Assembly: GCF_964204645.1 (NCBI RefSeq)
Contig: NC_134028.1
Coordinates: 18,297,653-18,361,652, forward strand
Reading direction: 5' to 3'
Length of the DNA stretch: 64,000 nucleotides
Source: Tubulanus polymorphus
Taxonomy: Eukaryota; Animalia; Nemertea
Shown: positions 16,568 to 52,940 of the stretch, piece after piece
Layout: each line of letters opens with the position of its first letter
How positions within the stretch are numbered: position 1 is the first letter of the stretch
The notes under the pieces: model-generated
Databases searched by the model: none
Seen by the model: only the letters and a program-made list of their open reading frames with translations
Told to the model about the DNA's origin: nothing
Translations under genes and position numbers: made by a program

Positions 16568-16975
16568 AGTAATAGGGGTAATGGGCTTTCAAGCCAAAGG
16601 TCGAACGGTCGAGCTCATTAAAAACAAATGTTAAAAGTAATTTAAAACTATAATATATTTTCATAACCGTGTGCATTTTATATTATAACTAAATATTTAT
16701 TCTAAGATATCAATAATTTAAATTTAAAAAGCATATTGTATTAAATCAATTGGTCGCTCCACTTCGCTACCGCTCCGCTCCGCGACCAATTGATTTATTT
16801 ACAATACACAAATTCATATAATCAAATATATTGTAATAATAATTATTATTCTATTATTCAACTGAAATGCACACGGTTATGAAAATATATTATAGTTTTA
16901 AATTACTTTTAATATTTGTTTTTAATGAACTCGACCATTGAACCTTTAACCTGAAAGCCCATTACCCCTATTACT
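16568..16975. repeat. E1 left terminal fold-back palindrome (TIR continues to ~17185)
   Basis: Starts AGTAATAGGGGTAATGGGC, ends GCCCATTACCCCTATTACT; central stem AATCAATTGGTCGC/GCGACCAATTGATT. Confidence 0.95.
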
Positions 16976-17207
16976 CTTAAAATAATCATATACATGAATA
17001 ACATTTAAATTGACAGATTATTCAATATAAAAGTGTGAGCTCTTATAGAATATATAGATAGATATATTTACAACATTATTTCAATATTTATATTTGTATG
17101 AGTCAGATTTTTAAACATTAAAAGTGTTAGTAAAGTGTGATTGAAATAATACATATTTAAATCATTGAACTTCTAAAATCTATTTTAATAAAAAATTTAG
17201 TATTAAA

Positions 17208-20200
17208 ATGGAAGCAAATAAGTACTACTGCCCAACATGTAATATCAATATAGATAAATCCCAAAAAGCAAGACACAATAAAACTAAAACACATTTAGAG
17301 AATAAATTGAAACTAGAATATAAAGATGATATATTAGAAACTAAATTAGATGAATTAAAGAATGAAAAAGAAACATACAAATGTGATACATGTAATCAAT
17401 CATTCAGTGATAAAAGATATTATAATGAACATTTAAAATCTAAAAGTCGTATTAGAAATAAGAATAATGATATTTTAGGTGAAGATTATTTTGATAAAGA
17501 TAATGATAAGAAACAGAAGACAATTAAAAGCATAAAAAATAAATTAAACAATAAAAGACCATACATGGAAGATGTAAGAAATTATATTAATTCATTGGAT
17601 AATAAAAAAAGATATAGAGATAACCGAAGCATTTAAAAGTGATATTGGCCCAGCAGCTATCGAGTTTAAATTTCATAAAGGTAAAACATTAGAAGAAAAT
17701 AAAAAACATTTAGAAAATATGAAAGAAATAATAAAAATAATAACTGATGTTGAATATCCTAAAATAAGTATATCTTCTAAAGTTAAATTCATAAAATCTG
17801 AAGATAAACCAATATATAATATAAATTCTCATTCACAACATATTATATCTAAACAACATATAGATGATAAATTAGATAAATGTTATAATGAAGTAAAAAC
17901 TAAAATAGAAGAGAAATATTTTGAAGGATCTGGTTTAATATTTGATGAGATAATATTTATGACTTTACATGTTTATAACACAAAATATAATAAGTTAACT
18001 AAATCAAAACCAATTGATGAAAATAATAATAATCATATTATAAAGAACCAGATATTGAAGCATCGAGTTATATCAAACTACCATTTAAAACTAATGCTGT
18101 AATAAATGTACAAAATGAAGATGATAAATGTTTTCTATCGGCTATAATAAGTTGTTTACACCCAGTTGAAGATTATAAACAACATAGTTTTAGATTAACT
18201 CATTATAAACCATTTGAAAATAATTATAATATAGATAAGTATCCTGTTATAATTAAAAACATCCCAAAAATAGAAAGAGATAATAATTTGAGAATAAATG
18301 TATTTGATTTAATCAAATTACCAAATACAAAAGGTAACAACATAAAATATGATACATTAGAACCTTTATACCTATCAAAAGATTATGATTCAAACGATGT
18401 TATAGATATACTATATTATGAGAATCATTATATGTGGATTAAAAAAATCGATTTATTTTTTAAATCAGAAAATGATCACCATAAAATATATCTTTGTAGA
18501 AAATGTTTACATAGATTCAGTAATGAAAGTACATTATTAAATCATAAACAATTATGTGAAAATCACGATTATTGTAAATTAGTTTTACCAAATGAAAAGG
18601 ATAAAATATTAGAATTCAAAAAATATGATTACAAAAATAAAGTACCATTTGTAATATATGGAGATTTTGAATCATTAAATAAAGAACTAACTGATCAAGA
18701 TAGAAAAGAAATATATTATAAGAGAAAGAAATTAAATTCTAATGAAAATGATTATTCTGAAGAACCACCAAAAACAAATACTATTAAAAAGATTCATCAA
18801 TCAGCTGCTGCTTTCGGGTTATATATTAAATCTGATTATCCAGAACTAATTGAGAGTGAATATTATCATTATAGAAATGAAAATGTTATCAATCATTTTT
18901 GTGACTTATTAATTGAATATGAAATAAAATTTAATGAAAAGTTAAATAAAAATATAGAAATTATAATGACAGAAGAAGATAAAGAAGAATTTGCGTTTGC
19001 AGATAAATGTTATTATTGTGAAAAGATATTTAATTATAAAGATAAAAAAGTAAGAGACCATGATCATTTGAACGGAAAGTTTAGAGGCGCTGCACATGAG
19101 AATTGAAACTTACAAGCTAAGAAAATTAACTTTGTACCAGTTATATTTCATAATCTATCAGGATACGATGCTCATTTATTCATCAAACAGTTATGTTATA
19201 AAATAGAAGAAATTAATAATGAAATAGAAAGATTAAATTCAAATAGATCAAAAGATAAAATACCAACTTATAAATTTAGAATGTTAGCTAAAACATCTGA
19301 GAATTATATATCATTCCAATTTGGTTGCCTAAGATTTATAGATTCATATAGATTTTTAAATAGTTCATTAGATAACTTATCAAAATCATTAGTTGATGAT
19401 GAATTAAAAATATTAAAGCAACACTACCCAAATAATGATGATTTTCAATTAATGAGATATAAAGGAGCAATTCCATATTCATTTTATAAATCACATAATG
19501 ATTTTAACATTACTGAATTATTGAAAGAACAATTCTATGATGAATTAAAAAATGAATATGTTAAAGATGAAGTCTATAATAGAAAATTGAATATTTGGAA
19601 TCATTTCAAAATAGAAAATCATGGACAATTAGTAGATTTATATCTAAAATCAGATGTATTATTATTAACCGATATATTCGAAAGGTTTAGAGATTTAAAC
19701 CTAAAATATTTTAACATTGATCCTTGTCATTGTTATTCTAGTCCAGGTTTAACATGGGATTGTGGATTAAAATTTACGGATATAAAAATGGATTTGTTAA
19801 CAAATATAGATCAATTACTATTATTTGAAAAATCTATAAGAGGAGGAGTTTCAGGTGTATTAGGTGATAGATATTTCAATGTAAATGATAACCCTGGATA
19901 TAAGTTATTATATATAGATGCAAATAATCTAGATATTGCAGATGATTCAGATACTGGTTACTTTTTTGTTGTAGATTTAGAATATCCTGAACATATTAAA
20001 TTTAAATCTAGAAATCTAGCTTACTGTCCCAAACATAAAACCGTAACTCATGAAGAATTATCAAATTATCAAAAAAGAATTAAACCCGAAAATAACATTC
20101 ATACAGAAAAGTTAATGGTAACTCAAGAAGATAAATATAATTATGTAGTACATTATAGAATGTTAAAGTTTTATCTAAAACAAGGAATGATCTTAAAAAA

Positions 20201-20554
20201 AGAACATAGATATATTTCATTTAGCCAATCTAAGTGGTTAGAAAAATATATAGATTTTAACACCAAACAGAGAACTAAAGCTAAAACTTGATTTCGAGAA
20301 AGATTTCTTCAAGTTAATGAATAATGCATTCTATGGCAAGACTTGTGAAATTAATAAAAATAGAAATGATATTGAGTTAGTTAGTAATGGTAAAAGGATA
20401 AGGCATTTACAATCATATCCTAAATTTATAGGTAACAGAATATTTGATGAAAATTTAGCCGCCGTTAAGATGAGAAGAACATCAATGAAATTTAATAAAC
20501 CAATCTATGTTGGCGCTTCAGTTTTAGAATTATCAAAATTACTAATGTATGAAT
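17208..20554 (+). pseudogene. protein-primed family B DNA polymerase (pPolB), E1, disrupted and 3'-truncated
   Basis: ORF pieces 17208, 17719, 18288, 19281, 20317; YGDFES, FHNLSGYDAH, RGGVSG, YIDANN, KLMNNAFYGK. Confidence 0.95.
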
Positions 20555-20558
20555 GTAT

Positions 20559-21313
20559 TGTGTAACAAACGTCCCATATAAATTATTCCAAACTATTTCT
20601 GAATTATCTTCTTTTCTAGCTTGTATAGGTTTCATATTTATAGAACTATGTTTAGAATTATTATAACCTTTCATTAAATCATCTAACACATCGATATATT
20701 TAGATGTTTCATTAGCAGTAAAATATTTCCACATTCTAGTTTTCAATGTTTTATTAAATCTTTCTATAATAGATGCTTTTTTATCTGAATGTGTTGAAAA
20801 ATAATCTACATCGTTATCAGATAATAGTTTTTTAAAATGTTTGTTATAGAATTCCTTACCTTCATCAAATTGTATCTTATCTGGAATAGCTTCTTTAAAT
20901 ATAGATTTAAAAGCATTTGTTACTTCTATTCCAGTTTTATTTTTGATTGGAATTGACCATGCGTATCTACTGAATATGTCTATAACATTTAATATCCAGA
21001 AATATCCTTTGTTGTATTCCTCTAAGTTCTTCATGTCAATTAAATCAGCTTGCCATTGTTGATCCATATATGAAACCATAACTTTTCTTGTTAAATAAGT
21101 TTTATCCATTTTCTTGTGGATTTGATATGTTGGTTGATTTTGTAACCATGATTTCAATTCACTATATTTTATGCCACCATGTGGGTGCCATACGGCACCA
21201 TTACCATTTTCTTTATCAGATTTAATTTTATCCCATAATTCTGAAACGTTAGAATATGATACTTCACTTTCTGGGTTGTAATATAAATCTCTTAAATATT
21301 GTTCTTTTTTCAT
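20559..21313 (-). pseudogene. retroviral-like (rve) integrase, E1, C-terminally truncated
   Basis: WQADLID, IDIFSRYAW, QFDEGKEF, IERFNKTLK. Homology to the E3 integrase stops at NLYGTFVT. Confidence 0.93.
21173..21199 (-). mobile_element. 27-bp GC-rich hairpin micro-insertion, copy A (in frame in integrase)
   Basis: GGTGCCGTATGGCACCCACATGGTGGC; absent at the orthologous E3 site (~47120). Confidence 0.8.
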
Positions 21314-21319
21314 CTTATT

Positions 21320-21688
21320 TTAATCCATTAATAATAATCTAGATTTAGTTTCAATGGTTTTATGATTTGACTTATTTTCTGGTATAATAGCTTTATTGTC
21401 ATTGGAATCATATTTATCATCAGATTTGAATTTTGATTTATATATTACACCGGATAATATAATAACTGTTACTAATCCAATTGTAATATATAATTTATAA
21501 TTACTTTCAGCATTAGAAGAATTAGATGGATTATTATTTGAATCAATATCAGATATAGTCTGTGATTCATTTATATCAGTTAATTTCTTTTTCTTAGTTT
21601 TTTTTAATTCTGAAGATCTTTTACCTAATTCTCTTGCCCATTTAATTTGTTTTTCAGATTTAGCCTTTTTCTTAACGCTATCACTCAT
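21320..21688 (-). CDS. Polinton small basic protein with one transmembrane helix (122 aa)
   Basis: Ortholog of E3 46613-47008; hydrophobic LYITIGLVTVIILSGVIY; TAAATG start. Confidence 0.8.
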   Translation of the reverse strand: MSDSVKKKAKSEKQIKWARELGKRSSELKKTKKKKLTDINESQTISDIDSNNNPSNSSNAESNYKLYITIGLVTVIILSGVIYKSKFKSDDKYDSNDNKAIIPENKSNHKTIETKSRLLLMD

Positions 21689-21697
21689 TTATTTTAG

Positions 21698-22282
21698 TTA
21701 ATTTTTGTTCTGATTCATTTTCTGTTTCGACGTTTGGTTGTAGTACATCTGTTTCGTTCTTACCTGATTATATTCCATAGGTTTGATGTTCGAAAATGTT
21801 ATGACGCCAGTAGAAATTAATGTCATAACCGATCCTAATTGAAATGAAGCATAACCAACCCATTTTTGTAATTCAGTCATAACTAAGTAGTCATTTTTCA
21901 AATCACTATATAATTTATTTTCATCATTAATTGGTATTAACTGGTTACATAATGTTGAATAACATTTGACAATACCATCTGAAATAGAATCATTTATTCT
22001 AGCTAATCTAGCTTCTTCATAAATCTTAAAATATTTTATTACTTTATCGGGTTTCATAGCATCTAATTCTTGAAAAGTAATTATTTTCCCGATAAACTGA
22101 TTACATTTCCCGCCAGCAATTAATAATTCTAGATGGTGTTTACAATATAAATAGTATTCATAATCAATATTACAATTAACTTGAGCACAATTAGTTACAA
22201 CTGTATCTTTATTATCACTTATACCCAAATCATCTAATGTCTTTTCAATATCAATAATATTCTTATTAGATTTCTTTGACAT
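21698..22282 (-). CDS. Polinton conserved hypothetical protein (194 aa)
   Basis: Ortholog of E3 46013-46620; TAAATG start; extreme C-terminus probably frameshifted relative to E3. Confidence 0.8.
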   Translation of the reverse strand: MSKKSNKNIIDIEKTLDDLGISDNKDTVVTNCAQVNCNIDYEYYLYCKHHLELLIAGGKCNQFIGKIITFQELDAMKPDKVIKYFKIYEEARLARINDSISDGIVKCYSTLCNQLIPINDENKLYSDLKNDYLVMTELQKWVGYASFQLGSVMTLISTGVITFSNIKPMEYNQVRTKQMYYNQTSKQKMNQNKN

Positions 22283-22530
22283 TTATATTAGAGAAAAAAA
22301 GCAAAAAAAAATATTATAAGTATTCTTCAAATGATACTAGCTAGTTAAGCTAAAGAATTTTAGTATTGACTACTGATACTAGCTATTTGAATTTAAAGAA
22401 TCTCTATTTGAATCTATTCAAAATATAAAGTATTCTCTTTTTGAAAAGAAAATATTAAAAATATAATAGAATTCACTAGCAGTTGAAGTTATTGTTTTTT
22501 TATTATATTTTATTTAAATTAGGATTTAAT

Positions 22531-22557
22531 ATCACCATGTGGGTGCCGTACGGCACC
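22531..22557 (-). mobile_element. 27-bp GC-rich hairpin micro-insertion, copy B (intergenic)
   Basis: GGTGCCGTACGGCACCCACATGGTGAT; absent at the orthologous E3 site (~45764). Confidence 0.8.
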
Positions 22558-22718
22558 ATCTCACTACTATTGTCTATCTATTAGGAGCAGTAATTATAAC
22601 TGTCCAGATAAGTCATTTCGGATCCTCGATAATAAATCCTTAACTGAAAATAAATTCAAAGAAACGACTGGTGGAATTACTATTTCATAAACACATATAT
22701 TTATTATGTAAATTTTAG

Positions 22719-23071
22719 CGATCAATAATAGAACAATGGGGAACAATAGAAATGCGGTCCAATCGGACCGGTTATTGCGCAATACACAGTTATATTTTTA
22801 TTCTGTAAACTACAACATTCAAACATAGAAATGTAACCAATCAATATTGAGCAGCTGTTTCCGTCAACAACGATCAATAGTAGAACAATGGAGAACAATA
22901 GAAAAGCGGTTCAATCGGACCGGTTATTGCGCAATACACTGTTAACAGTAAACAATCAATACAGAACAACCGCCGCCATTAACAACGATCAATAATAGAA
23001 CAATGGAGAACAATAGAAAAGCGGTTCAGTCGGACCGGTTATTGCGCAATACACAGTTTACAGTAAACAAT
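22719..23071. repeat. three-copy tandem array with ATTGCGCAAT and AACAAT motifs
   Basis: Unit CGATCAATAATAGAACAATGGAGAACAATAGAAAAGCGGTTCAATCGGACCGGTTATTGCGCAATACAC at ~22719, 22871, 22986. Confidence 0.9.
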
Positions 23072-23148
23072 ACAATATTAAAACAGATATATACAATCGA
23101 GATTACATTTTTTGATATCTATATTACAAAGACCTTCAGTGTTATAAT

Positions 23149-23878
23149 TTATAATTTTGTCCAGAATTCTTTAATTACTGGATTGTTTCCAATCATTTCT
23201 TCAATTTCTGGCAAATATCTGACTACTTCACTAAATGCTAATCCTAATATTTTGAATTTTTAATATTTTATTAATCTACCTACTCTTCTCAGTTTTCTTT
23301 CAAAACCGGCACTGATATCTATGTTCTTTTTAACCCACAGCCCCCAAGAAATCCCCTCAGTTTCTTTATCAAACATTGAAAACCCTATATTTAGATAACC
23401 CCCGAAAATGATGTGGTCCCATAGGTGATTTGCTTTTCTATTTAATATGGTTTTATAACTTTTTTTAAAGATATCAGTAATTTCAGCAAATGAAATAACT
23501 TCTACACTTTGTATTTCCGGAAAGTTTAAATGTTCTGTGTCAATGATTAATTTAGATTTTAAAAACTCGTTCAACTCTTCTCCACTCATTTTCTTAGTTT
23601 TCGATTCTTTAAGTCCCAACAGCAATTTAAGTCGCGTTGCTGGTAATTTTGGTAATTGTAGTTCGCGCGGTAATTGTTTATTATGTATTACATCACTCAG
23701 AATTTTCACCATTTCTTGATGATAATCCAAATGTTCTTGTAAGTTTTTGTGAAGTTTGTTCGTCAATTACGAGAGTTTCATCCTCCATTTCTATTGATTC
23801 CTGAGTTTCCCTATCCAGCAGCAATCGTTCCTCACCCGTTGGTTGGCTTAGAATTTCTGGTTGATCTCTGTATTCCAT
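23149..23878 (-). pseudogene. Polinton accessory protein (homolog of E3 43647-44396), frameshift plus stop
   Basis: YHQEM, KKMSGEELNEFLKSKL, HLWDHIIFG, ERKLRRVGRLI and C-terminal IKEFW shared with the E3 ORF. Confidence 0.8.
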
Positions 23879-24226
23879 TTTAATCTAAAAGATGTCGTGA
23901 AAATGAATTACTGTACTTAAATATGTTTAAAGGTTTCCCTACTTCATAATAACTACAAAAAACGGTACTTACATTTAGATTTAGAACTGTAAACTGTGTT
24001 TTGAGAGAGAATATCCAATACGTACTATGTATGTGAAAGTTGATTTCTAACTGCCGACGTGGCGCACGTTCGACCAAACTAATTATTTCTGCACAGATGT
24101 TCTTTATGATGAAGTTAATTAATTCTTTAGAATTGAAAACAAGATATATTTGGCAACATATGTTTTAGTAGTAAGCAAAAGCTATGTATTATAGACATAC
24201 AAAGCTCAAATAGAATTGCCAGCTTT

Positions 24227-24867
24227 CTAACCACTGATTAAAACCTCAGAATGCGGTTGATTCTGTGAAATACTATTCCATAATTCAACAAATGTCTTTG
24301 CTTTATCCAGTTGATCTAAATATAACTGTAAATCTAGTTTATTAGATTTAATTATGTTTTCCTTCTTTTCTAAAGGCCTTAAATTTTTCCAGTTCCATAT
24401 TAGCTTCTTATTATAATCATCACTCATGTCAAATTTAGAAATAGGCAACACGTGATCAATATGAAAGTATTCACCATAATTATCTATATTCATTTTATCA
24501 TCGAATTGATATATTATCCATGATTTTAAGAATTCATCTGAACAACCCAATAAATTAAATAGTGTTTCTGAATGTGTTTCTTTGTTGAATAATTGTGTTA
24601 ATCTAGTCCTTAAGCATTGTTTCGATCTAAAATTAAGATCTGTTTGATATCTTTCTCTCATATATTCTGTCATATAATCATTATAAGCTTCTCTATTATC
24701 TTCTCTGTATTGTTTGGTATATAGTTTAAAACAAGTTTTACAGCAATATTGAAAACCATCTTTGCTAATCTTACGCTTACTAAATTCTGTTAAAGCTTCT
24801 TGTGGTATATATTTATGATGCCAGTGTTATTTGTAATATTGATAATTTGCGGTTGTTCTGGTTCCAT
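24227..24867 (-). pseudogene. HNH-type endonuclease with N-terminal Cys zinc motif, E1
   Basis: KDGFQYCCKTC, FHIDHVLPISKF...NLRPLEKKENIIKSNK. TAAATG start at 24867 abuts the right TIR; small deletion/frameshift near 24800. Confidence 0.75.
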
Positions 24868-25073
24868 TTATTATACATATTTTTTTACTAAATTGATTTT
24901 AGAAGTTCAATGATTTATATCATGCATTATTTCAATCACACTTTACTAACACTTTTAATGTTTAAAAATCTAACTCACACAAATATAAATATTCAAATAA
25001 TGTTGTAAATATATACTTTTATATTGAATAATCTGTCAATTTAAATGTTATTCATGTATATGATTATTTTAAG

Positions 25074-25481
25074 AGTAATAGGGGTAATGGGCTTTCAGGT
25101 TAAAGGTTCAATGGTTGAGTTCATTAAAAACAAATATTAAAAGTAATTTAAAACTATAATATATTTTCATAACCGTGTGTATTTCAGTTGAATAATAGAA
25201 TAATAATTATTATTAAAATATATTTGATTATATGAATTTGTGTATTGTAAATAAAGCAATTGGTCGCGGAGCGGAGCGGTAGCGAAGTGGAGCGACCAAT
25301 TGATTTAATACAATATGCTTTTTAAATTTAAGTTATTGATATCTTAGAATAAATATTTAGTTATAATATAAAATGCACACGGTTATGAAAATATATTATA
25401 GTTTTAAATTACTTTTAACATTTGTTTTTAATGAGCTCGACCGTTCGACCTTTGGCTTGAAAGCCCATTACCCCTATTACT
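25074..25481. repeat. E1 right terminal fold-back palindrome (TIR from ~24893)
   Basis: Reverse complement of 16568-16975 with a few mismatches. Confidence 0.95.
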
Positions 25482-27966: not shown

Positions 27967-28373
27967 AGTAATAGGGGTTTAGTTGTTCTATACCAAAGGT
28001 CGAACGGTCGAGCTCATTAAAAACAAAATATTAAAAGTAATTTAAAACTATAATATATTTTCATAGCCGTGTGTATTTTATATTATTACTAAATATTTAT
28101 TCTAAGATATTAATAATTTAAATTTTAAAAGCATATTGTATTAAATCAATTGGTCGCTCCGCTTCGCTAAAGCTCCGCTCCGCGACCAATTGATTTATTT
28201 ACAATACACAAATTCATATAATCAAATATATTCATAATAATAATTATTCTATTATTTAACTAAAATACACACGGTTATGAAAATATATTATAGTTTTAAA
28301 TTACTTTTAATATTTGTTTTTAATGAGCTCGACCATTCAACCTTTAGTATAGAACAACTAAACCCCTATTACT
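27967..28373. repeat. E2 terminal fold-back palindrome, variant arms
   Basis: GGGGTTTAGTTGTTCTATAC paired with GTATAGAACAACTAAACCCC. Confidence 0.95.
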
Positions 28374-28644
28374 CTTAAAATATTTATATACATGAATAAA
28401 ATATATATGAATAACATATAAATTGATAGATTATTCAATATAAAAGTGTTAGTAAAAAAGTAACGAGTAATTAACGAGCTCTTATAGAATAGATATATAG
28501 ATATATTTTAAACATATTTCAATATTTATATTTGTATGAGTTAGATTTTTAAACATTAAAAGTGTTAGTAAAGTGTGATTGAAATAATTCATATTTAAAT
28601 CATTGAACTTCTAAAATCAATTTAAAAAAAGATTTAGTAGTTAA

Positions 28645-31600
28645 ATGGAAGTACTACTGTTCAACATGTAATATCAATATAGATAAATCCCAAAAAGCAA
28701 GACACAATAAAACTAAAACACATTTAGAGAATAAATTGAAATTAGAATATGAAGATGATATATTAGAAACTAAATTAGATGAATTAAAGAATGAAAAAGA
28801 AACATACAAATGTGATACATGTAATCAATCATTCAGTGATAAAAGATATTATAAAGAACATTTAAAATCTAAAAGTCATATTAGAATTAAGAATAATGAT
28901 ATTTTAGGTGAGGATGATTTTGATAATGATAACGATAAGAAACATAAGACAATTAAAACAATAAGAAATAAATTAAACAATAAAAGACCATACATGGAAG
29001 ATGTAAGAAATTATATTAATTCATTAGATAATAAAAAAGTTATAGAGATAACAGAAGCATTTAAAAGTGATATTGGTCCAGCAGCTATTGAGTTTAAATT
29101 TCATAAAGGAAAAACATTAGAAGAAAATAAAAAACATTTAGAAAATATGAAAAATATTTTAAAAATAATTACAGATGTTGAATATCCTAAAATTAGTATA
29201 TCTTCTAAAGTAAAGTTTATAAAATCTGAAGATAAACCAATATATAGTATAAATTCTCATTCACAACATATTATATCTAAACAACATATAGATGAAAAAT
29301 TAGATACATGTTATAATGAAGTAAAAACTAAAATAGAAGAGAAATATTTTGAAGGATCAGGTTAAATATTTGATGAAATAATATTTATGACTTTACATGT
29401 TTATAACACAAAATATAATAAGTTAACTAAATCAAAACCAATAGATGAAAATAATGTATCATATTATAAAGAACCAGATATTGAAGCATCGAGTTATATT
29501 AAACTACCATTTAAAACTAATGCTGTTATAAATGTACAAAATTTTGATGATAAATGTTTTCTAGGGACAATTATAAGTTGCTTACATCCAACAGAAGATA
29601 TTACACGTAGTTTTAGATTAACACATTATAAACCATTTGAAAATAATTATAAGATAGATAATTATCCTGTTAGAATTAAAATATCCCAAAAATAGAAAGA
29701 GATAATAATCTAAGAATAAATGTATTTGATTTAATCAAATTGCCAAATACAAAAGGTAACAATATAAAACATTATACATTAGAACCTTTATATTTATAAA
29801 AAGATTATGATTCAAACGATGTTATAGATATATTATATTATGAAAATCATTATATGTGGATTAAAAGAATTGATTTATTTTTCAAATCAGAAAGTGATTT
29901 TGATAATAAAATATATCTATGTAGAAAATGTTTACATAAATTCACAACTGAAAGTGCATTATTAAATCATAAACAATTATGTGAAAATCATGATTATTGT
30001 AAATTAGTTTTACCAAATGAAAATGATAAAATATTAGAATTCAAAAAATATGATTACAAAAATAAAGTACCATTTGTTATATATGGAGATTTTGAAACAT
30101 TAAATAAAGAATTAACTGATCAAGATAGAAAAGAAATATATTACAAAAAAAAGAAATTAAATTCAAATGAAAATAATATAATTGATTATTCAGATCCCCC
30201 AAAAACAAATACTATTAAAAAGATTCATCAATCAGCTGCAGCTTTTGGATTATATATTAAATCTGATTATCCAGAACTAATTAAAAGTGAATATTATCAT
30301 TATAGAAATGAAAATGTTATCAATCATTTTTGTGACTTATTAATTGAATATGAAATAAAATTTAATGGAAAGTTAAATAAAAATATAGAAATAATTATGA
30401 CAGAAGAAAATAAAGAAGAATTTGAGTTTGCTGATTATTGTATTATTGTGAAAAGATATTTAATTATAAAGATCAAAAAGTGAGAGACCATGATCATTTG
30501 AATGGAAAGTTTAGAGGCGCAGCGCATGAGAATTGTAACTTACAAGCTAAGAAAATCAATTTTGTTCCAGTAATATTTCATAATTTATCAGGATATGACG
30601 CACATTTATTTATCAAACAGTTATGCCATAAGATAGAAGAAATCAATAATGAAATAGAAAGATTAAATTCAAATAGATCAAAAGATAAAATACCAACTTA
30701 TAAATTTAAAATGTTAGCTAAAACATCTGAGAATTATATATCATTCCAATTTGGGTGTCTAAGATTTATAGATTCATATAGATTTTTAAGCAGTTCATTA
30801 GATGATTTATCAAAATCATTAGTTGATGATGATTTCCAATTAATGAGATATACAGGTGCAATTCCATATTCTTTCTATAAAAATCATAATGATTTTAACA
30901 TAACTGAATTATTGAAAGAACAATTCTATGATGAATTAAAAAATGAATATGTTAAAGATGAAGTATATAATAGAACATTGAATATTAGGAATCATTTCAA
31001 AATAGAAAATCATGGACAATTAGTAGATTTATATTTGAAATCAGATGTATTATTATTATCGGATATATTTGAAAGGTTTGGAGATGTAAACCTAAAATAT
31101 TTTAACATTGATCCTTGTCATTGTTATTCTAGTCCAGGTTTAACATGGGATTGTGGTTTAAAATTTACAGATATAAAAATGGATTTGTTAACAAATATAG
31201 ATCTATTATTATTATTTGAAAAATCTATAAGAGGAGGAGTTTCAGGTGTATTAGGCGATAGATATTTCAATGTAAATGATAACCCCGGATATAAGTTATT
31301 ATATATAGATGCAAATAATTTGTATGGTTGGGCAATGATGGAACCACAACCTTATGGAGTATTTGAAATAAGTGAAGTTTTACAACATGAAAGTAATGAT
31401 AAATTTGATTGGAAGAAAAGAATCCTAGATATTGCAGATGATTCAGGTACTGGTTACTTCTTTGTTGTAGATTTAGAATATCCTGAACATATTAAATTTA
31501 AATCTAGAAATCTAGCATACTGCCCAGAACATAAAACTGTAACTCATGAAGAATTATCAAATTACCAAAAAAGAATTAAACCCGAAAATCACATTCATAC

Positions 31601-32642
31601 AGAAAAGTTAATGGTAACTCAAGAAGATAAATATAATTATGTAGTACATTATAGAATGTTAAAAGTTTTATCTAAAACAAGGATTGATCCTAAAAAAGTA
31701 CATAGATATATTTCATTTAGTCAATCTAAGTGGTTAGAAAAATATATAGATTTTAACACCAAACAGAGAACTGAAGCTAAAACTGATTTCGAGAAAGATT
31801 TCTTCAAGTTAATGAATAATGCATTCTATGGTAAGACTTGTGAAAATATTAGAAATAGAAATGATATTGAGTTAGTTAGTAATGGCAAAAGGATAAGGCA
31901 TTTACAAACATATCCTAAGTTTTTAGGTAACAGAATATTTGATGAAAATTTTGCTGCAGTTAAAATGAGAAGAACTTCTATGAAATTTAATAAATCAATC
32001 TATGTTGGTGCTTCAGTTTTAGAAATATCAAAGCTATTGATGTATGAATTCTATTATAATGTATTACAACCTCATTTTGGAGAAAAACATATAGAAATCT
32101 TATATTTTGATACTGACAGTTACATATTAAAGATAAAAACTAATAACATAACTGATGATTTAAAAACATTAAAACATCATTTTGATTTCAGTAATTATCC
32201 TAAAGATCATGAATTGTTTAGCAATGATAATAAAAAGCGACCCAGTAAATTCAAAGATGAATTAGGTGGTGAAGGAATGATTGAAATCATTGGTATTAGA
32301 TCCAAAATGTATTCATATAAAACTAAAACTCATGAATCAAAGAAATTGAAAGGAATAACCAAAAGTGTAGTAGAATAGAATATTCATTTCAAAGATTACA
32401 TCAATTGTATATTCAATGAAGAAGTTAGAAAACATAAGTTGAAATGTTTAAGATCTGAAGATCATGAAATGTTTATTGAAGAAATTGAAAAGATTAGTCT
32501 AAACCCATTTGATGATAAAAGATATACTTTAGATGATGGAATTCATACAGTTGCATATGGTTGCAATTTAGATGAATACTTAAAATTTAAAAGAGAAGAA
32601 ACAAAAGAGAACGAGATAATGAAAAGAATTCTAACGTGTTAA
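28645..32642 (+). pseudogene. pPolB, E2, full length but with stops and frameshifts
   Basis: All polymerase motifs present: YIDANNLYG, KLMNNAFYGK, YFDTDS, KGI; split over ORFs 28736, 29387, 29854, 30438, 32439. Confidence 0.96.
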
Positions 32643-32671
32643 TCAAATTTTTATAAAAATATGTATTATAA

Positions 32672-33025
32672 ATGGAGAGTAAACAAGCACACGGTGAGAA
32701 CAACAAATTAGTTCTTGATAGAATAAAAGATACTTCAAATGTCAAATCAGTAGATTATAGATTTAAGAAGTTAAAAGAATTAATAATCCATAAGAAATAT
32801 CTAATTACAAATATTGTTACAGTTACTAACAAATATGGAGATAAATTAGTTCTACACTTAGAATATGAAGGATTAAAAAGAAATACATATAAATTCAGAA
32901 CATATTTACCAGATAGATTTCATAGATTATCAAGTGAAGATTTAGAAGAATTATGTTCTGGTGATTACTATTTCGTATACAAAGGTAAGAATGAAAAATG
33001 GCACCACGAAATAGATTTCGAATAA
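32672..33025 (+). CDS. Polinton small conserved protein, possibly OB-fold ssDNA-binding (117 aa)
   Basis: Ortholog of E3 56618-56959; beta-rich pattern TNKYG..YLPDRF..VYKG; function is a guess. Confidence 0.65.
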   Translation: MESKQAHGENNKLVLDRIKDTSNVKSVDYRFKKLKELIIHKKYLITNIVTVTNKYGDKLVLHLEYEGLKRNTYKFRTYLPDRFHRLSSEDLEELCSGDYYFVYKGKNEKWHHEIDFE

Positions 33026-33042
33026 GAAAATATGTAAAATAA

Positions 33043-33796
33043 ATGGCGGAATTAAAAGAATACAGAATATTTGTTGATTCAAGAAAACTTACAAATTATA
33101 AATCTCATAATTTACCAATACAAATAGATAGAGAATTCAAGAATTGTGTTGATTTAGAATTAGTTAATATAAGTTTATGTAATTCTTTTCATAATATATC
33201 GAATAAAAGTCTTGATCATTTAGCTTTTAAAATTTATGTTAGAAATTTGAATAAATGGTTTCATCTTTATCTAAAACCAGGATTATATAATTTAGAAACA
33301 TTAGCGCAAGAAATTAATAAAAGAGCTCGTTTAAAAATGGGCTCAGCTCCTCGATTTGAAATTAAATTTATCAAAAGTGATAGTTAACTTTATTCTTACT
33401 ATTCGAACTAATGAACAACATAGATTTCTAGTAAGAAAACCTTTAGCTAAACTGTTTGGAATTCTTCCGGATAGACATTATTCAAGTATTGAAACTTATA
33501 CAAATATAATGACTTTTACACATTTTTATATTTATTGCAATTTAATTAATCCTACAAAAACATTTGAAGCAACTAAAGATACAATTTGTAATTCTAGTAT
33601 ATTAGATATTTTACCATTAAAAAATGTTAAACAATTTGGAACGCAAATAAATTATAATTTAGCTGAATGTGATTTTAAACCTTGTATTCCTCAATTTAAT
33701 AATTTTAAATTAGAAATAAGATATCATAATGGATATTTAATTGATTTCAATAACTTTCCTGTGATATATGAATTAGTTATAAGATGTAGAGAATAA
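33043..33796 (+). pseudogene. minor capsid (penton) protein, E2, frameshifted
   Basis: Two ORFs (33043, 33356) match the two halves of E3 55845-56600. Confidence 0.8.
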
Positions 33797-33872
33797 TTTT
33801 TTCACTATATAAAAGAATATAACTGTTGGGCAGAGTATATGTTTTGGGTTTGATTTTAAACGTGAGAAAGAA

Positions 33873-34172
33873 ATGAAATTTAACATTAATGATGTAATTA
33901 CACATATCAAAAATATTGTATTTTCTAATGAAACAACATTTGAGTATGAAACAACAATAGATAAAGAAACTTTAAATGTAGAAAAGATTACTAATTTAAT
34001 TAGAGAATCTTTAAGATTTTATGAATTAGATGAAGATTTTATCATCGATGATATTAAAAAAATAATAATTGAAATATATACAACTGAAACTAGTAATGAA
34101 ATACATGTTGAAATAATTATCACTAAGATAACTAAATATTTTGACGATAGTAATTTTTTGATAAATAAATGA
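33873..34172 (+). CDS. Polinton acidic hypothetical protein (99 aa)
   Basis: Near-identical to E3 55470-55766. Confidence 0.7.
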   Translation: MKFNINDVITHIKNIVFSNETTFEYETTIDKETLNVEKITNLIRESLRFYELDEDFIIDDIKKIIIEIYTTETSNEIHVEIIITKITKYFDDSNFLINK

Positions 34173-34390
34173 GTGATAATAAGTGGATAATAGGTGGATT
34201 ACATAATGGAGCATTACTATCAGTTGGAACTGTTGGTTATTCAGTGGTATTAAAAAAAGTATTTAAAATGGTAAGTGTTAATGTTGATAGATTTGATATA
34301 AATGATATTTTAAAATTAACGTTAGCAGTTACTTTATCTAATTTAACTAGTGATTATTTAGAAAAACAAAAATATATTCCTCCCATATAA
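34169..34390 (+). CDS. Polinton small hydrophobic protein (73 aa)
   Basis: Near-identical to E3 55248-55469; TAAATG start. Confidence 0.75.
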   Translation: MSDNKWIIGGLHNGALLSVGTVGYSVVLKKVFKMVSVNVDRFDINDILKLTLAVTLSNLTSDYLEKQKYIPPI

Positions 34391-35294
34391 ATGCATAATT
34401 ATTTTACTAAATAAATGGCTTCTGCAGTTATAACTATTATAGGATCGGCAATTATTACCCCCCTCCACCCCAATTTCAAATGCAAAGTTCAATGTTACCA
34501 CAGGATTGACTGGTAAGATTAAAAATGCCAGACTTAATCTCTCGATGAGATCTTCCTGACCAATTACTGATTGGGACCAGGTCAGCAGCCACTTCTTTGA
34601 AAGCATATTTCGCTTTCTTCCTTTTACTTCTCAGATTATCATGTCGGTGAGCTTCTGGGCCATTGGTCCTTTATTGTTTTCTTTTTTGGGTTTGCCAACC
34701 CATCTATGGCATCGTCGTCATGTTTGCCTGTCTGTCTGTTTGTCTGTATGTTTCGTTATGACACGATTTAAGCTGTTAGTGTGGACTGATTATTCTGTAA
34801 ATTAGCACATATATTCTGCACTCGATGTAAATGGTGCAGCTTAGTTTATATTTGATTCTGATGTTTATAAGTGCTCAAATTTGGTTATAGATTAATCAAC
34901 GTTACTCGTTAGATCAAGCCGTTGTAGGGCGTTGCCACAATACACTCGCATGTAATACGGAACACGTACATAGAGATATTGATCGTACGCGCTGATCAAG
35001 TCTAATGCCTCGCCATCAGCACCTTTAATGAGTACGGGAGCTTCAATCAAAGTCGCGAGAAATATTGGTGACGAATTCAAAGTATTATTACATATTCCAC
35101 TAAACAAACAGTTTTTTGATGAAAATATCATTTAACACCATATAATGTCAGCGCACCAGGGCCCACCAGCGTTTTTGCGGGTGAAAACCACACCCAGTAA
35201 TACAGAGATCCGTAGTCTGAGCAACGCTGAAAACGGTTCTTAAGTAATTAGATATGGTATAAAGTGTCATCAGTTTAACTCGTTTTTATGTCCT

Positions 35295-42243: not shown

Positions 42244-42822
42244 AGTAATAGGGGTAATGGGCTTTCAGGCCAAAGGTCGAACGGTCGAGCCCATTAAAAA
42301 ACAAAATATTAAAAGTAATTAAAAAACTATAATATATTTTCATAACCGCGTGCATTTTATATCAAAACTAAATATTTATTCTAAGATATCAATAATATAA
42401 AAAGCATATTGTATTAAATCAATTGGTCGCTCCACTTCGCTACCGCTCCGCTCCGCGACCAATTGATTTAATTACAATACACAAATTCAAATAATCAAAT
42501 ATATTCAAATGATAATAATTATTCTATTATTCAACTGAAATGCACGCGGTTATGAAAATATATTATAGTTTTTTAATTACTTTTAATATTTTGTTTTTTA
42601 ATGAACTCGATCATTAAACCTTTAGCCTGAAAGCCCATTACCCCTATTACTCTTAAAATATTCATATATATATGAATAACATTTAAATTATTGAACTTCT
42701 AAAATCAATTTCAATAAAAAATATAGTATTAAAATGGAAGCAAATAAGTACTACTGCCCAACATGTAATATCGATATAGATAGATCCCAAAAAGCAAGAC
42801 ACAATAAAACTAGAACACATTT
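42244..42822. repeat. E3 left TIR (palindrome 42244-42651 plus promoter and first ~29 pPolB codons)
   Basis: Reverse complement of 59970-60548; only two mismatches noticed. Confidence 0.96.
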
Positions 42823-43260
42823 GTTTTTAGTCCAGTTGGTTAAAGCAAAGACATTTATCGAATTAAGGAACTCAACATATAGTGAAAAATATGTTGAATC
42901 GTTATAAACACCCGATAATACTCAGCTATATAGTTGGTTGTATTAGCTCTAGTAAACATATGTTACCAGCTTATATTTCAATTGTAAAGAGTTAATTAAT
43001 TTCATTAATCTAAATGCTTTTATTATTGATTTTTTTTCAACTTCAACGCGTTGTGTATACGGCGAACGTTAGCGAATCACAAATCTCATAATTTACAAGT
43101 CTCAACACACTTGTTCTAGATGTTTATACTAGAAAATGATTCTATTTTAACCTATATACATTCAATGTACAGAGCCATAGAATAAATCTATAAATTCACA
43201 GCTGTTACAGTTGTTACTATGACGACGAGACATTATGACACATCATAATCAGAAACGTGT

Positions 43261-43275
43261 AGAATATTCTAGAAA
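43261..43275. promoter_or_regulatory. candidate heat-shock element
   Basis: aGAAt-aTTCt-aGAAa, three alternating nGAAn units upstream of the accessory ORF. Confidence 0.4.
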
Positions 43276-43646
43276 GACGCACCGGAACTAGATGATGTAG
43301 CATAATCAACAACGTGTCATTCTAGAAATCGCCCCGGAAATGGACATACGCTGTAATATTGTGCTCAGGATATTCTATCTTTCGAAACGAAATTAGGAGT
43401 TTATAGTTTACAATTATAAATCTAAATGTAAGTACTGTTTTTTGTAGTTATTGGGGCTATTAAATATGAAACCTTTAAGTGCTTTTGACAACTACAACTT
43501 CATACAGTTAATTCTATTTTACGTTAGATAGATAATAACTTGAACTATAATAAGTTATAATAATTAGAAACGATAGACTTGAAAATATTTATATCATATA
43601 ATATCGCGGTTCCTGTTCTACCGCTGATATCTTTTAGTTGAATAAA

Positions 43647-44396
43647 ATGTCGTGTGTATCAAGAAGTACTCTTGATTCTCAGAGGACAACCGAAATGGAA
43701 GATGAACAAACCGAAATAGAAGATGAAAAAACCGAAATAGAAGATGAACAAACCGAAATGGAAGATGAAGTAAAAGAATCTTTCGATATAGAAGATGAAA
43801 CGTTAGAAGAAGTTAAAAAACATTTATATTACCATCAAGAAATGACATTAATTTTAGAAAAAATTATAGAAAACCAGCAATCAAGCGTAACATCATTACC
43901 GAAAAGACCAACAACCAATGTAGAAATATTGTTAAGACTAAAAGGAACAAAAACTAAAAAGAAAATGAGCGGAAATGAGTTAAATAAGTTTTTAAAATCA
44001 AAATTATCAAATGAAAAAGATGTAAGTTTTAAAGAAATAGAAGGTATAACATCATTTAATGAAATAACTGTTTTATTGAAAAAAAATTATAGAACCTTGT
44101 TATTCAAAAAAGCAAAGCATTTATGGGATTATATCATTTTCGGGGATTGTTTAAATAGGGGATTTTTAATGTTTAATAAACAAACTGCGGGGATTCCTTG
44201 GGCTTCTTGGGTTAAAAAATATATAGGTATCAGTGTTGGGCATGAAAGAAAATTAAGGAGCGTAGGGAGATTAATTATATATAAAAGATTCAAATTATTA
44301 AGTTTGTCATTTAGTGAAGTAATCAGAAATATGCCAGAAATTGAAAAAATGCTTGTCAATGATCCAGAAATTGAAAAGTTCTGGTTGGAATTATAA
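43647..44396 (+). CDS. Polinton accessory protein with acidic EDEQTE repeats (probable ATG 43647)
   Basis: Open frame; homolog in E1; candidate 5'UTR intron 43428-43637. Confidence 0.8.
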   Translation: MSCVSRSTLDSQRTTEMEDEQTEIEDEKTEIEDEQTEMEDEVKESFDIEDETLEEVKKHLYYHQEMTLILEKIIENQQSSVTSLPKRPTTNVEILLRLKGTKTKKKMSGNELNKFLKSKLSNEKDVSFKEIEGITSFNEITVLLKKNYRTLLFKKAKHLWDYIIFGDCLNRGFLMFNKQTAGIPWASWVKKYIGISVGHERKLRSVGRLIIYKRFKLLSLSFSEVIRNMPEIEKMLVNDPEIEKFWLEL

Positions 44397-44465
44397 ATCA
44401 AATTATGTACAACGACTGAACAACTTGTATAATGTATTGTGTAAATCTGTTTGGTGAATTTTTAT

Positions 44466-44892
44466 GTTCGGTCGTTTCTATTTCTAGAATGAATATATAA
44501 TTATGATTAGCGCATGCGCATTGATCAAAAGCGCGCACGAATGCGCGCTTTTGATTAGGTATGATTTGTGAATTTTTATGTTTAGTCGTTTCTATTATGA
44601 TTAACGCATACGCATTAAGCAAAACCGGCCATAAATGGCCGCATGTAACACATGTAACACATGTAACGCATGTGTTGTTTCTATTTTACAGAATTTCTAG
44701 AATGAATATATAATTATGATTAACGCATGCGCATTAAGCAAAAGCGCGCACGAATGCGCGGTTTTACCTAATGTGAACATGTTTTGATATTTTCTGTGTT
44801 CGGTCGTTTCTATTTTACAGAATTTCTAGAATGAATATATAATTATGATTAACGCATGCGCATTAAGCAAAAGCGCGCATGAATGCGCGGTT
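44466..44892. repeat. tandem array with CGCATGCGCA palindromes
   Basis: Unit TTCTAGAATGAATATATAATTATGATTAACGCATGCGCATTAAGCAAAAGCGCGCACGAATGCGCG, three full copies and one partial. Confidence 0.9.
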
Positions 44893-45035
44893 TTGCCCAG
44901 TGGTATTATTTAGATATCAAGGAATCGAAACAACTTATCAAAAGCAGCGAGGAATGAAAAAGGATGACGTTGATCGAAGAAATGGAAGAGGATTCTAAAA
45001 TATTAACCAATTTAGTAAAAAAATATGTATAATAA

Positions 45036-45709
45036 ATGGAACCAGAACAACCACAAACTATCAATATTACAAATAACACTGGCGTTATAAACATATATTA
45101 CAAGAAGTGTTCTAAATGTGAATTAAATAAATCATTAACAGAATTTAGTAAGCGTAAGATTAGCAAAGATGGTTTTCAATATTACTGTAAAACTTGCATT
45201 AAACTATATACCAAACAATATCGAGAAGATAATAGAGAATCTTATAATGATTATATGACAGAATATATGAGAGAAAGATATCAAACAGATCTTAATTTTA
45301 GATTGAAACAATGCTTAAGATCTAGATTAACATAATTATTCAACAAAGAAACACATTCAGAAACACTATCTAATCTATTGGGTTGTTCAGATGAATTTCT
45401 CAAATCATGGATAATATATCAATTCGATGATAAAATGAATATAGATAATTATGGGGATTATTACCATATGATCACGTGTTACCAATATCTAAATTTAACA
45501 TGAACGATGAATACAATAAAAAACTTATTTGGAATTGGAAAAATTTAAGACCTTTAGAAAAGAAAGAAAATCAAACCAAATCTAATAAACTAGATTTACA
45601 GTTATATTTAGAACAGTTAACAAAGGCAAAGAAATTTATTGATCAATGGAACAATAATCCAAATAATGAACAATACGTTGAGGAATTTGATATCAAGGAT
45701 CCGAAATGA
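45036..45709 (+). pseudogene. HNH-type endonuclease, E3 (stop at 45333, frameshift ~45468)
   Basis: CSKC..KDGFQYYCKTC, DHVLPISKF, NLRPLEKKENQTKSNK; ortholog of E1 24227-24867. Confidence 0.78.
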
Positions 45710-46012
45710 CTTATCTGGACAGTTATAACTACTGCTCCTAATAGATAAACAAAAGTAGTGATATATCAAATCCTAATTTAAATAAAAAGTATTTAAAAAA
45801 CAATAACTTCAACTAGCTATCTAATTCTATTATATTTTTAATATTTTCTTTTCAAAAAGAGAATACTTTATATTTTGAATAGATCCGAATAGAAATTCTT
45901 TAAATTCAAATAGCTAGTATCAGTAGTCAATACTAGAATTCTTTAACTTTAACTAGCTAGTATCATTTTATAATACTTATAATACTATTCTTATTAAATT
46001 TCTCTAATATAA

Positions 46013-46620
46013 ATGTCAAAGAAATCTAATAAGAATAGTATTGATATTGAAAAAACATTAGATGATTTAGGTATTAGTGATAATAAGGATACAGTTGTTT
46101 CTAATTCTATTCAAGTTAATAACAATATAGATTATGAATACTATTTATATTGTAAGCATCATCTAGAACTATTGATTGCTGGCGGGAAATCTAAGGACTT
46201 CTTAGGAAAAATAATAACTTTTCAAGAACTAGACTCTATGAAACCCGATAAAGTAATCAAATATTTTAAGATTTATGAAGAGGCAAGATTAGCTAGAATA
46301 AATGATTCTATTTCAGATGGTATTGTCAAATGTTATTCTAAGTTATGTAACCAGTTAATACCAATTGATGATGAAAATAAATTATATAATGATTTGAAAA
46401 TGACTACTTAGTTATGACTGAATTACAAAAATGGGTCGGTTATGCTTCATTTCAATTAGGATCGGTTATGACATTGATTTCTACTGGCGTCATAACATTT
46501 TCGAACATCAAACCTATGGAATATAAATCAGGTAAGAACGAAACAGATGACGCTGTACTACAACCAAACGTCGAAACAGAAAATGAATCAAAACAAAAAT
46601 TAACTAAAATAAATGAGTGA
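46013..46620 (+). pseudogene. Polinton conserved hypothetical protein, frameshift ~46400
   Basis: ORFs 46013 and 46414 together match E1 21698-22282. Confidence 0.8.
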
Positions 46621-47008
46621 TGGAGTTAAGAAAAAGCCTAGATCCGAGAAACAAATTAAATGGGCAAGAGAATTAGGTAAAAGATCATCAGAATTAAAAA
46701 AAGCTAAGAAAAAGAAATTAACTGATATAAATGAATCACAGACTTTATCTGATGGTGTCGTACGGCACCCACACGGTGGTATTGATTCAAATAATAATCC
46801 ATCTAATTCTTCTAATGCTGGAAGTAATTATAAATTATATATTACAATTGGATTAGTAACAGTTATTATATTATCCGGTGTAATATATAAATCAAAATTC
46901 AAATCTGATGATAAAGATGATTCCAATGATGATAAACCTATTATACCAGAAAATAAGTCAAATCATAAATCAAATGAAAATAAATCTAAAATATTATTAA
47001 TGGATTAA
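46613..47008 (+). CDS. Polinton small basic membrane protein (131 aa)
   Basis: Ortholog of E1 21320-21688 plus a 9-aa insert GVVRHPHGG. Confidence 0.8.
   Translation: MSDGVKKKPRSEKQIKWARELGKRSSELKKAKKKKLTDINESQTLSDGVVRHPHGGIDSNNNPSNSSNAGSNYKLYITIGLVTVIILSGVIYKSKFKSDDKDDSNDDKPIIPENKSNHKSNENKSKILLMD
46754..46780 (+). mobile_element. 27-bp GC-rich hairpin micro-insertion, copy C (in frame)
   Basis: GGTGTCGTACGGCACCCACACGGTGGT between GAT and ATT; E1 has uninterrupted GATATT. Confidence 0.8.
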
Positions 47009-47011
47009 AAT

Positions 47012-48707: not shown

Positions 48708-48723
48708 AATCCTAATTCAAAAT

Positions 48724-49105
48724 ATTATAGAATTCACTGTATACTAATGGATGAGTGGATGAATTGGATGAATTGGATGAATTGGATGAGTGGATGAATG
48801 GATGAGTGTAATAATATATAATTTACATATGTTTTTTATTTTTAAAACAGTAAGAGTTTGATTTGAAGTTATTTTATCAATTTTATACCATATTTAAATA
48901 TTATTTTAATAATATATATATATATATTGTGTTAAATTTAATAAAGAATATAAATATTATATTTATACTCATACTATTCTTCCAATTTATGTGTTAAAAA
49001 GTAAAATATATATATTATTATACTCATCCACTCTTCCACTCATCCAACTCATCCAACTCTTCCAACTCATCCATTCATCCATCAATATACAGTGAATTCT
49101 ATAAT
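48724..49105. repeat. fold-back structure between convergent genes
   Basis: 20-bp perfect IR ATTATAGAATTCACTGTATA/TATACAGTGAATTCTATAAT followed inward by opposed (GGATGA[A/G]T)n arrays and an AT-rich centre. Confidence 0.88.
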
Positions 49106-49109
49106 CTTT

Positions 49110-50165: not shown

Positions 50166-50197
50166 TTATTATATACATTTTTATTAAAGTTAAAATT

Positions 50198-52924: not shown

Positions 52925-52940
52925 TTACATAATAAAAAAA

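Follow-up and report, generated by a model that had tools for sequence, protein, structure and literature searches.

Zoned homogenisation of terminal hairpin arms and a conserved outer-arm motif in a Polinton family

To our knowledge the start of Polinton replication has never been demonstrated, and the models in use are taken from adenovirus or parvovirus. The window analysed here, a stretch of 64,000 nucleotides of eukaryotic host DNA (GC about 37%, with Tc5 and reverse-transcriptase remnants), contains three copies of an AT-rich Polinton/Maverick family, designated E1, E2 and E3, and every terminal inverted repeat (TIR) of these copies starts with a fold-back of 407–408 nt that restates the terminal sequence internally (three copies, five ends). 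A first-pass annotation of this DNA had noticed element-specific changes on both arms of the hairpins, and had proposed that one arm is copied from the other by fold-back end repair and that a 14-bp block replaced in E2 may be an origin or recognition site. The question raised by the locus is whether the arms do evolve in concert, and which mode of replication such a pattern would fit. The features are collected in Table 1. The copies are clustered, three insertions of the same family lying inside 44 kb (16568–60548).

Table 1. Features of the three Polinton copies, with coordinates in the window.
Feature	Position	Strand	Remarks
E1 Polinton copy, internally deleted, both ends	16568..25481	+	6-bp target-site duplication TGTATC
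E1 end hairpins	16568-16975 and 25074-25481		
E2 Polinton copy	27967..34457 (right limit approximate)	+	right end absent from window; polymerase gene frameshifted
E2 left terminal hairpin, 407 nt	27967..28373	+	outer arm 27967-28157, 24-nt tip loop 28158-28181, inner arm 28182-28373
Terminal zone nt 1-26, outer arm	27967..27992	+	perfectly paired with inner arm; contains E2-specific 14-bp block 27979-27992
Outer-arm motif nt 27-46, two GG-y-CGA-type repeats	27993..28012	+	candidate origin-recognition site
AT-rich distal stem, columns 49-115, second homogenised zone	28015..28079	+	partner about 28262-28325
AT-rich poorly paired zone, columns 116-173	28080..28135	+	partner about 28205-28261; arms not homogenised
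Inner-arm counterpart of motif, degenerate, copy-variable, mostly C to T	28328..28347	-	yields conserved mismatch bubble
Mirror copy of E2 block, inner arm	28348..28361	-	
E3 Polinton copy, 18.3 kb	42244..60548	.	579-nt TIRs with 2 differences; 6-bp target-site duplication AGTAGA
E3 end hairpins	42244-42651 and 60141-60548		
Retroviral-type integrase with chromodomain	47012..48100	+	PF00665 E=7e-9; PF00385
A32-like packaging ATPase	48093..48707	+	PF04665 E=5e-12
Probable major capsid protein	50198..51445	-	PF16903 E=0.006, below curated cut-off
E3 protein-primed DNA polymerase B ORF, 912 aa, C-terminal part deleted	57320..60058	-	zinc fingers
E3 polymerase domains			terminal-protein-like about aa 136-256 (Ser241); vOTU-like Cys307/His406; endonuclease VII/HNH insert aa 587-635

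The E2 end folds as a single hairpin of -126.6 kcal/mol (z = -26.8), and none of 100 shuffles folds as well. The 11-mer that opens each end occurs exactly ten times, twice per end, and the orientation of the hairpin is identical in 5/5 ends. In the fold the last base of the element pairs with the inner arm at the foot of the stem, which would give its 3′ OH the capacity to prime synthesis. The strand carrying the 3′ end folds 6–14 kcal/mol better than the strand carrying the 5′ end in all four hairpins compared, which share ancestry. By eye, the GC-rich hairpin tips (28150–28190 in the window; L004:310–335 in a relative described below) have a short CCACTTCG-type motif in common on otherwise unrelated stems. 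Both of the copies with two ends (E1 and E3) have long TIRs, AG...CT ends and a 6-bp target-site duplication, the TIR measuring about 467 nt in E1 and 579 nt in E3. The TIR boundary thus shifts between copies, and in E3 the repeat extends 171 nt past the hairpin (42652–42822 and 59970–60140) into the 5′ end of the polymerase gene. Since the hairpin measures 408 nt and the TIRs are alike to 579 nt, end-to-end annealing or recombination must also operate.

The outer arms were aligned with the reverse-complemented inner arms, and copy-specific changes were counted in columns 1–115 for the left ends of E1, E2 and E3, the right ends being excluded from the count as near-duplicates of the left ones. 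The outer arms carry 19 such changes and the inner arms 21, and 14 changes are mirrored in both place and base (0 in E1, 10 in E2 and 4 in E3), a number reached by none of 100,000 circular shifts (maximum 9). When columns 13–26 are omitted five mirrored changes are left, and again 0/100,000 shifts attain that number (maximum 4). None of the three private outer changes of E1 is mirrored. The strings cited in the first-pass annotation, including the arm pairs of E3, the left end of E1 and E2, are all present at the places it gave, and its claim that one arm is copied from the other is borne out by the mirroring of a 14-nt block with 9–10 changes and of changes in homopolymer length. Inter-arm copying is supported because such a block and such run-length changes cannot arise twice by chance, and because the pattern recurs in population reads and in the relative L004.

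The concert between arms is limited to nt 1–26 and nt 49–115, with nt 27–48 and the AT-rich middle exempt. The two arms of an element differ at 0–1 positions in nt 1–26, at 3–7 of 22 in nt 27–48, at 1–3 in nt 49–115, at 28–31 of 58 in columns 116–173, and at 1–3 in the tip stem that precedes the 24-nt loop. The earlier proposal of concerted arms accordingly holds for the two homogenised zones, where the 14 mirrored changes lie, and fails for nt 27–48 and 116–173. The clustering of outer arms with outer arms, which the annotation had named as evidence to the contrary, is indeed what the whole arm displays (18–29 differences between an outer arm and the outer arms of other copies, 36–44 between an outer arm and its own inner arm), although mirroring is above chance. 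In the stem tree the outer and inner arms of E2 are grouped at 97/95 and those of L004 at 100/100, and the arms of E1 and E3 are not resolved by element. Simple processive fold-back end repair fits the terminal zone, in which it stops at nt 26, but is insufficient for the whole because the fixed differences between outer and inner arm at columns 28, 35, and 39, which lie between the homogenised zones, would not survive it.

The E2-specific block has its exact complement on the inner arm. Over nt 13–26 the two arms of one element match at 14/14 positions in E2 and in E3 and at 13/14 in E1 and in L004; between elements (window copies against L004, and E2 against E1/E3) the match is 4–8/14. The E2 block is identical to that of E1/E3 at 4/14 positions, although the polymerase genes are 93–94% identical, and nine of 14 changes on one arm have P = 3e-8 at the background divergence of 6.4%. 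Because the more distant relative L005 shares 11/14 positions with E1/E3, the E2 block is the derived state, as the first-pass annotation had implied; and because at least nine changes in 14 nt far exceed the background, the sequences point to the block having been exchanged from a donor. An ancestral E2 block is ruled out by the same comparison, L005 matching E2 at 7/14. Matches to the block elsewhere in the window have one or two mismatches (one of them at 52065 inside E3) and are unconvincing as a local donor, and among the 98 fetched loci two-mismatch matches were found in 18, none of them convincing. E2 is the outlier in the polymerase as well as in the block (E1–E3 95.4%, E1–E2 93.6%, E2–E3 93.2%, for three copies only). 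The block ends at nt 26, exactly where the asymmetric zone starts. As a recognition site it is a poor candidate, given its divergence between E2 and E1/E3 beside an invariant outer nt 27–46; it retains length and pairing, and some constraint on its sequence may exist, in view of the positions shared by L005 and E1/E3.

Outer nt 27–46 are identical at 20/20 positions among E1–E3, and match L004 at 16/20 and L005 at 17/20, whereas the match to the element's own inner arm is 15–17/20. The motif stands in register without gaps exactly 26 nt from the terminus, also in L004 and L005. On sequence grounds this stretch, rather than the swapped block, would be the better candidate for a recognition site, and the mismatched stretch likely marks the outer arm as the start of element copying. 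The fixed spacing suggests a distance measured from the end, which argues for a function, whichever that may be. A pattern search with the end motif gave matches in 2/98 fetched loci and 0 matches in viral contigs.

The 98 loci had been fetched for their related polymerases, the seven closest being L001–L007; viral contigs scanned with the polymerase and with the integrase, each as a single protein, yielded no relative. A complete end hairpin of 257 nt is present in L004 (73% polymerase identity; -69.4 kcal/mol vs -18.2 ± 3.3 kcal/mol for 60 doublet shuffles). Its layout is that of the window hairpins: nt 1–27 are matched, a first bubble is followed by a perfectly paired AT-rich stem, and a second bubble leads to a GC-rich tip. 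The nt 27–48 asymmetry is kept in the window family and in L004 alike. The sequence of L002 (75%) starts inside a hairpin. The hairpin is not needed by all relatives, because L005 (58%) has the outer-arm start and the motif with no matching inner arm, and L082 (35%) has TIRs in which no hairpin was detected. L001, L003, and L007 have too little upstream sequence to show an end. The inverted repeat of L006 shows no recognisable element end, and it and those of L008, L013, and L023 were left uncounted for that reason. The long, near-perfect inverted repeats at L013:467–630, L023:2286–2466, and L008:189–1339 lie in or beside related polymerase genes and are possibly small fold-back inserts. In E3 an ORF of 113 aa (56618–56959) follows the polymerase gene downstream, and in L002:344–685 and L004:601–933 (64–65% identity) it is found upstream, beside the end; this difference in position implies that gene order near the end has been rearranged.

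Population data came from one raw-read run under the same species label, from another study and individual (X5), of which about 12% was read and 8,943 reads were placed. The variant table, complete at a threshold of 20%, holds 36 variants, pools copies and leaves the arms unphased. Depth is near 1,300 inside the hairpin vs 13–16 in the flank, and 1,991 reads pass from the end into heterogeneous flanks (agreement 0.34); by a rough estimate the reads come from a hundred ends or more, spread over many sites. Cross-mapping is small, since 47/8,943 reads fit two places. Stem columns at which the E3 arms agree contain 12 outer and 7 inner variants, six of them common in place and base, an outcome found in 0/200,000 random draws. 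Outer and inner frequencies match at columns 11 (24/32%), 16 (36/35%), 78 (50/58%), and 106 (71/73%), and a one-base deletion is mirrored on both arms at 42/51%; the shared variants at columns 110 (40/71%) and 27 (25/81%) are unequal. Homogenisation is incomplete in X5: six of the 12 outer variants have no inner mirror (column 25 twice, 26, 50, 52, and column 64 at 59%), and one variant (column 56) and two deletions (56% and 68%) are seen on the inner arm only. Part of this imbalance is due to other end types that align to the outer arm only and inflate the outer counts. Clipping at 42263 marks 275 reads of E2-type ends. Also abundant is a second end family, which has the first 35–56 nt of the end in common and a different hairpin interior. 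On the outer arm 572 of its reads part from the reference at 42300, and on the inner arm 465 do so at 42617; the clipped letters of these two groups correspond in register, which is another indication of mirrored change. At the A-runs in columns 53–63, both arms of E1 have the lengths that are common on inner arms, and both arms of E3 those that are apparently common on outer arms, which suggests that correction runs in both directions, with the reservation that homopolymer alignment is ambiguous.

The mirrored variants in X5 are common to many insertions and therefore predate insertion. This weighs against a highly improbable explanation in which compensatory selection alone, or gene conversion in the host chromosome after insertion, matches the arms. 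Strong folding could be selected, yet the block of 9–10 changes and the run-length changes are mirrored exactly, and of the five differences between the left and right hairpins of E1, the two in the paired stem sit on one inner arm and are unmirrored.

Flipped ends were looked for in X5 at 42271, 42278, 42282, 42613, 42617, and 42624, and no variant reaches 20% at these positions. The orientation data bear on the idea of a free genome with covalently closed, poxvirus-like hairpin ends, in which the arms would simply correspond to the strands of a single duplex, and the integrated form would be a copied concatemer junction. A nuclease domain of a junction-resolving type is present, and the AT-rich, incompletely paired zone below the short tip stem resembles poxvirus telomeres, which are AT-rich hairpins with conserved mismatches according to the accessible portion of PMC8956199. 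Poxvirus ends are closed and occur as flip and flop (same portion of that source), whereas the ends here are open, integrated, and of one orientation; the idea predicts both forms, against 5/5 ends in one orientation and flipped letters below 20% in reads, and predicts symmetric arms rather than a motif conserved on the outer arm only. A closed genome would, in addition, give one arm per end or require a precise cut at the stem base, and we regard this origin of the arms as very unlikely. No pile-up of read ends indicative of extrachromosomal molecules was found in X5, a library that protein-blocked ends might not enter.

The reading preferred here, to which we would give about even chances, is that each arm serves, in two zones, as a template for the other, and that the hairpin folds on the strand displaced in protein-primed replication, providing a local duplex origin. 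Strand displacement primed by the terminal protein would free a full-length single strand, the 3′ end of which would fold onto the inner arm within 400 nt, more quickly than the two ends could meet over 18 kb. The polymerase would then re-prime on the outer arm of the stem, reading the outer motif 26 nt in, and the degenerate inner motif would stop the inner end copy from serving as an origin or integrase end, so that orientation never inverts. The folded arms would form a heteroduplex that is corrected in patches. In such a scheme nt 1–26 would be homogenised by trimming of the 3′ end and resynthesis on the inner arm, and the E2 block is proposed to stop at nt 26 because these tracts end there; any tract extending beyond nt 27 would ruin the outer motif and hence be lost. 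Homogenisation of nt 49–115 would be episodic and in both directions, by short-patch mismatch correction or template switching, since the bubble would not outlast one continuous tract from the end, and the distal zone thus needs an internal process.

Template switching may also act generically on the arms of a hairpin that serves integrase or excision geometry, packaging, or end protection, or that is largely passive. The available text of PMC5941160 describes template switching as a driver of concerted evolution of inverted-repeat arms, that of PMC8956199 assigns the mismatched hairpin ends of vaccinia to packaging and not replication, and the patchy, apparently two-way correction at the A-runs fits as well. 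Generic switching would, however, erode the nt 27–48 asymmetry, which is kept in the window family and in L004, and the fixed 26-nt spacing of the outer motif suggests a distance measured from the end; on balance this explanation is improbable.

Whether the machinery for protein priming is present was assessed on the polymerase, although all three window genes are broken, E1 and E2 by frameshifts and E3 by its C-terminal deletion. PF03175 matches the C-terminal piece from E1 at E=2e-5, just under the cut-off, and Foldseek matches are to adintovirus and bidnavirus-like polymerases, with E down to 1e-27. In a model built from a 50-row alignment (pLDDT 80.4), aa 136–256 have the order beta-beta-alpha-beta-beta-alpha-loop-beta, and Ser241 lies between glycines in the loop before the last strand. 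This position is Ser in 44/50 rows and Thr in 3/50, and Cys307 and His406 are found in 50/50. The model matches the D1/D2 description and the PRD1-like strand-helix order of terminal proteins given in the accessible part of PMC11161782, which also reports that terminal proteins give structure matches to Y-family polymerases; the best solved-structure matches of the region here are likewise Y-family polymerases, at a weak level (111–129 columns, best E=0.009, none at or below 0.001). Protein priming looks intact in this model because the terminal-protein topology, Ser241, and Cys307/His406 are kept. The endonuclease VII domain scores 25.1 bits vs a Pfam cut-off of 23.6, with His617 and Asn633 in 48/50 rows, and the nuclease insert is present in many relatives. 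Among the 14 scanned ORFs of E3 (at least 100 aa, intact frames) none has a Pfam match to an adenovirus-type maturation protease.

The same sequence data fit hairpin self-priming too, an account that we consider possible if rather unlikely. The 3′ hairpin would prime the second strand in rolling-hairpin style, and the closed end or dimer junction would be resolved asymmetrically, possibly by the endonuclease VII/HNH insert of the polymerase, with the nt 27–48 bubble choosing the arm that is cut, as stem asymmetry does in the left-end hairpin of minute virus of mice. A 3′ OH at the stem base is a ready primer, the conserved stem asymmetry occurs together with a single orientation, the endonuclease VII domain with its conserved His617/Asn633 lies above the Pfam cut-off, and hairpin priming has been proposed for terminal palindromes of Halocafeteria elements in the available text of bioRxiv 10.64898/2026.07.28.741278. 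Against this stand the conserved terminal-protein serine and protease dyad and the occurrence of the nuclease insert in pPolB2 Polintons as well, the accessible text of whose describing paper contains the words hairpin or palindrome 0 times; that insert is interpreted as a homing endonuclease in the available sections of PMC11161782. Among the 15 of 18 joints listed for X5, moreover, no strand change recurs at a fixed place: the two found have 3 and 4 of 8,943 reads and lie away from mirror positions. A hybrid in which first-strand priming falls to the terminal protein and second-strand priming to the 3′ hairpin itself, with the endonuclease VII/HNH domain, directed by the conserved nt 27–48 bubble, resolving the junction on one arm only, is in our judgement a doubtful proposition. 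If true, this scheme would be unlike any described for DNA viruses and would give the widespread nuclease insert of Polintons a function.

Parvovirus ends (the AAV ITR and the left end of minute virus of mice) have the arrangement arm-loop-arm in their extended duplex form, and the latter combines stem asymmetry with a single 'flip' orientation, without flop. The Polinton ends resemble these in having arm-loop-arm at both ends and an asymmetry that goes with one orientation. They differ in that a Pfam scan found no HUH (Rep/NS1) initiator nickase among 25 ORFs, several E3 ORFs carrying no assignment, and in belonging to a double-stranded, integrase-inserted element with its own protein-primed polymerase; unlike in AAV, flip/flop forms were not observed (5/5 in one orientation; less than 20% in reads). 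The adenovirus ITR has protein priming at the exact end, a conserved binding motif at a fixed short distance, and left and right repeats that are homogenised. The present ends share the conserved motif with its constant spacing and the homogenised left and right repeats, with protein priming presumed. Adenovirus is not known to carry an internal copy of the end, from which the local fold-back in the present family can supply a duplex. A panhandle origin of adenovirus and internal palindromes in casposon TIRs are both mentioned in the available part of PMC4046053.

Among described elements the closest likeness, one of features rather than of placement in a tree, is to Polinton/Maverick elements with an HNH/endonuclease VII insert (pPolB2-type; Jeong et al., bioRxiv 10.1101/2023.08.22.554363; PMC11161782, both in their accessible parts). 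Shared features are a pPolB with terminal-protein, vOTU, and nuclease-insert regions, an rve integrase with chromodomain, an A32 ATPase, a probable capsid gene, a length of 18 kb, long TIRs, AG...CT ends, and a 6-bp target-site duplication; unlike the elements described there, the first 408 nt of each TIR here form a full fold-back. Virophages of Halocafeteria seosinensis (subtypes 1, 2, 5, and 6) and PLV subtype 4 have, as here, a palindrome within the TIR that abuts the target-site duplication, and in the accessible text of bioRxiv 10.64898/2026.07.28.741278 it measures 52 nt in the drawn subtype and occurs preferentially with non-pPolB replication genes. The hairpins described here measure, by comparison, 257–408 nt and go with a pPolB having protein-priming hallmarks, zoned homogenisation, and conserved asymmetry. 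The literature search, which had subscription papers, Repbase notes, bioRxiv supplements, and the original Polinton paper outside its scope, found no long end hairpin in a pPolB Polinton, no zoned homogenisation, and no conserved asymmetry, and the available text of PMC11296320, PMC12220804, bioRxiv 2022.07.28.501842, and PMC5850361 contains nothing on Polinton end hairpins. Mentions of 'hairpin' in a Bamfordvirae preprint refer to protein beta-hairpins and were set aside. Terminal palindromes (in virophages and PLVs) and concerted evolution of inverted-repeat arms are thus already known, and the zoning and the conserved asymmetry are without a precedent found in this search.

The ends of these elements record replication in their mutations, with a part that is recopied (nt 1–26 and 49–115), a part that is kept different (nt 27–48), and no flipping. 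From this zoning a 20-nt stretch with a constant spacing to the terminus emerges as candidate origin motif, and protein priming on the fold-back becomes directly testable against hairpin self-priming by biochemical means.

Two further observations concern sequences outside the end hairpins. Polinton-type polymerases were also encountered in contigs filed as bacterial and archaeal MAGs (L090–L098 and P0007), probably through eukaryotic or viral contamination of bins. E3 contains a second, unrelated imperfect palindrome of 418 nt (48706–49123; -92.8 kcal/mol), with arms of about 95 bp and GGATGA-type tandem repeats, which occupies the gap between the convergent ATPase and 351-aa ORFs. It is present as a single copy in the window, with a likeness of 24–34 nt at 22444–22477 in E1, and may serve as a terminator in both directions or as an internal origin, or may be a small insert.
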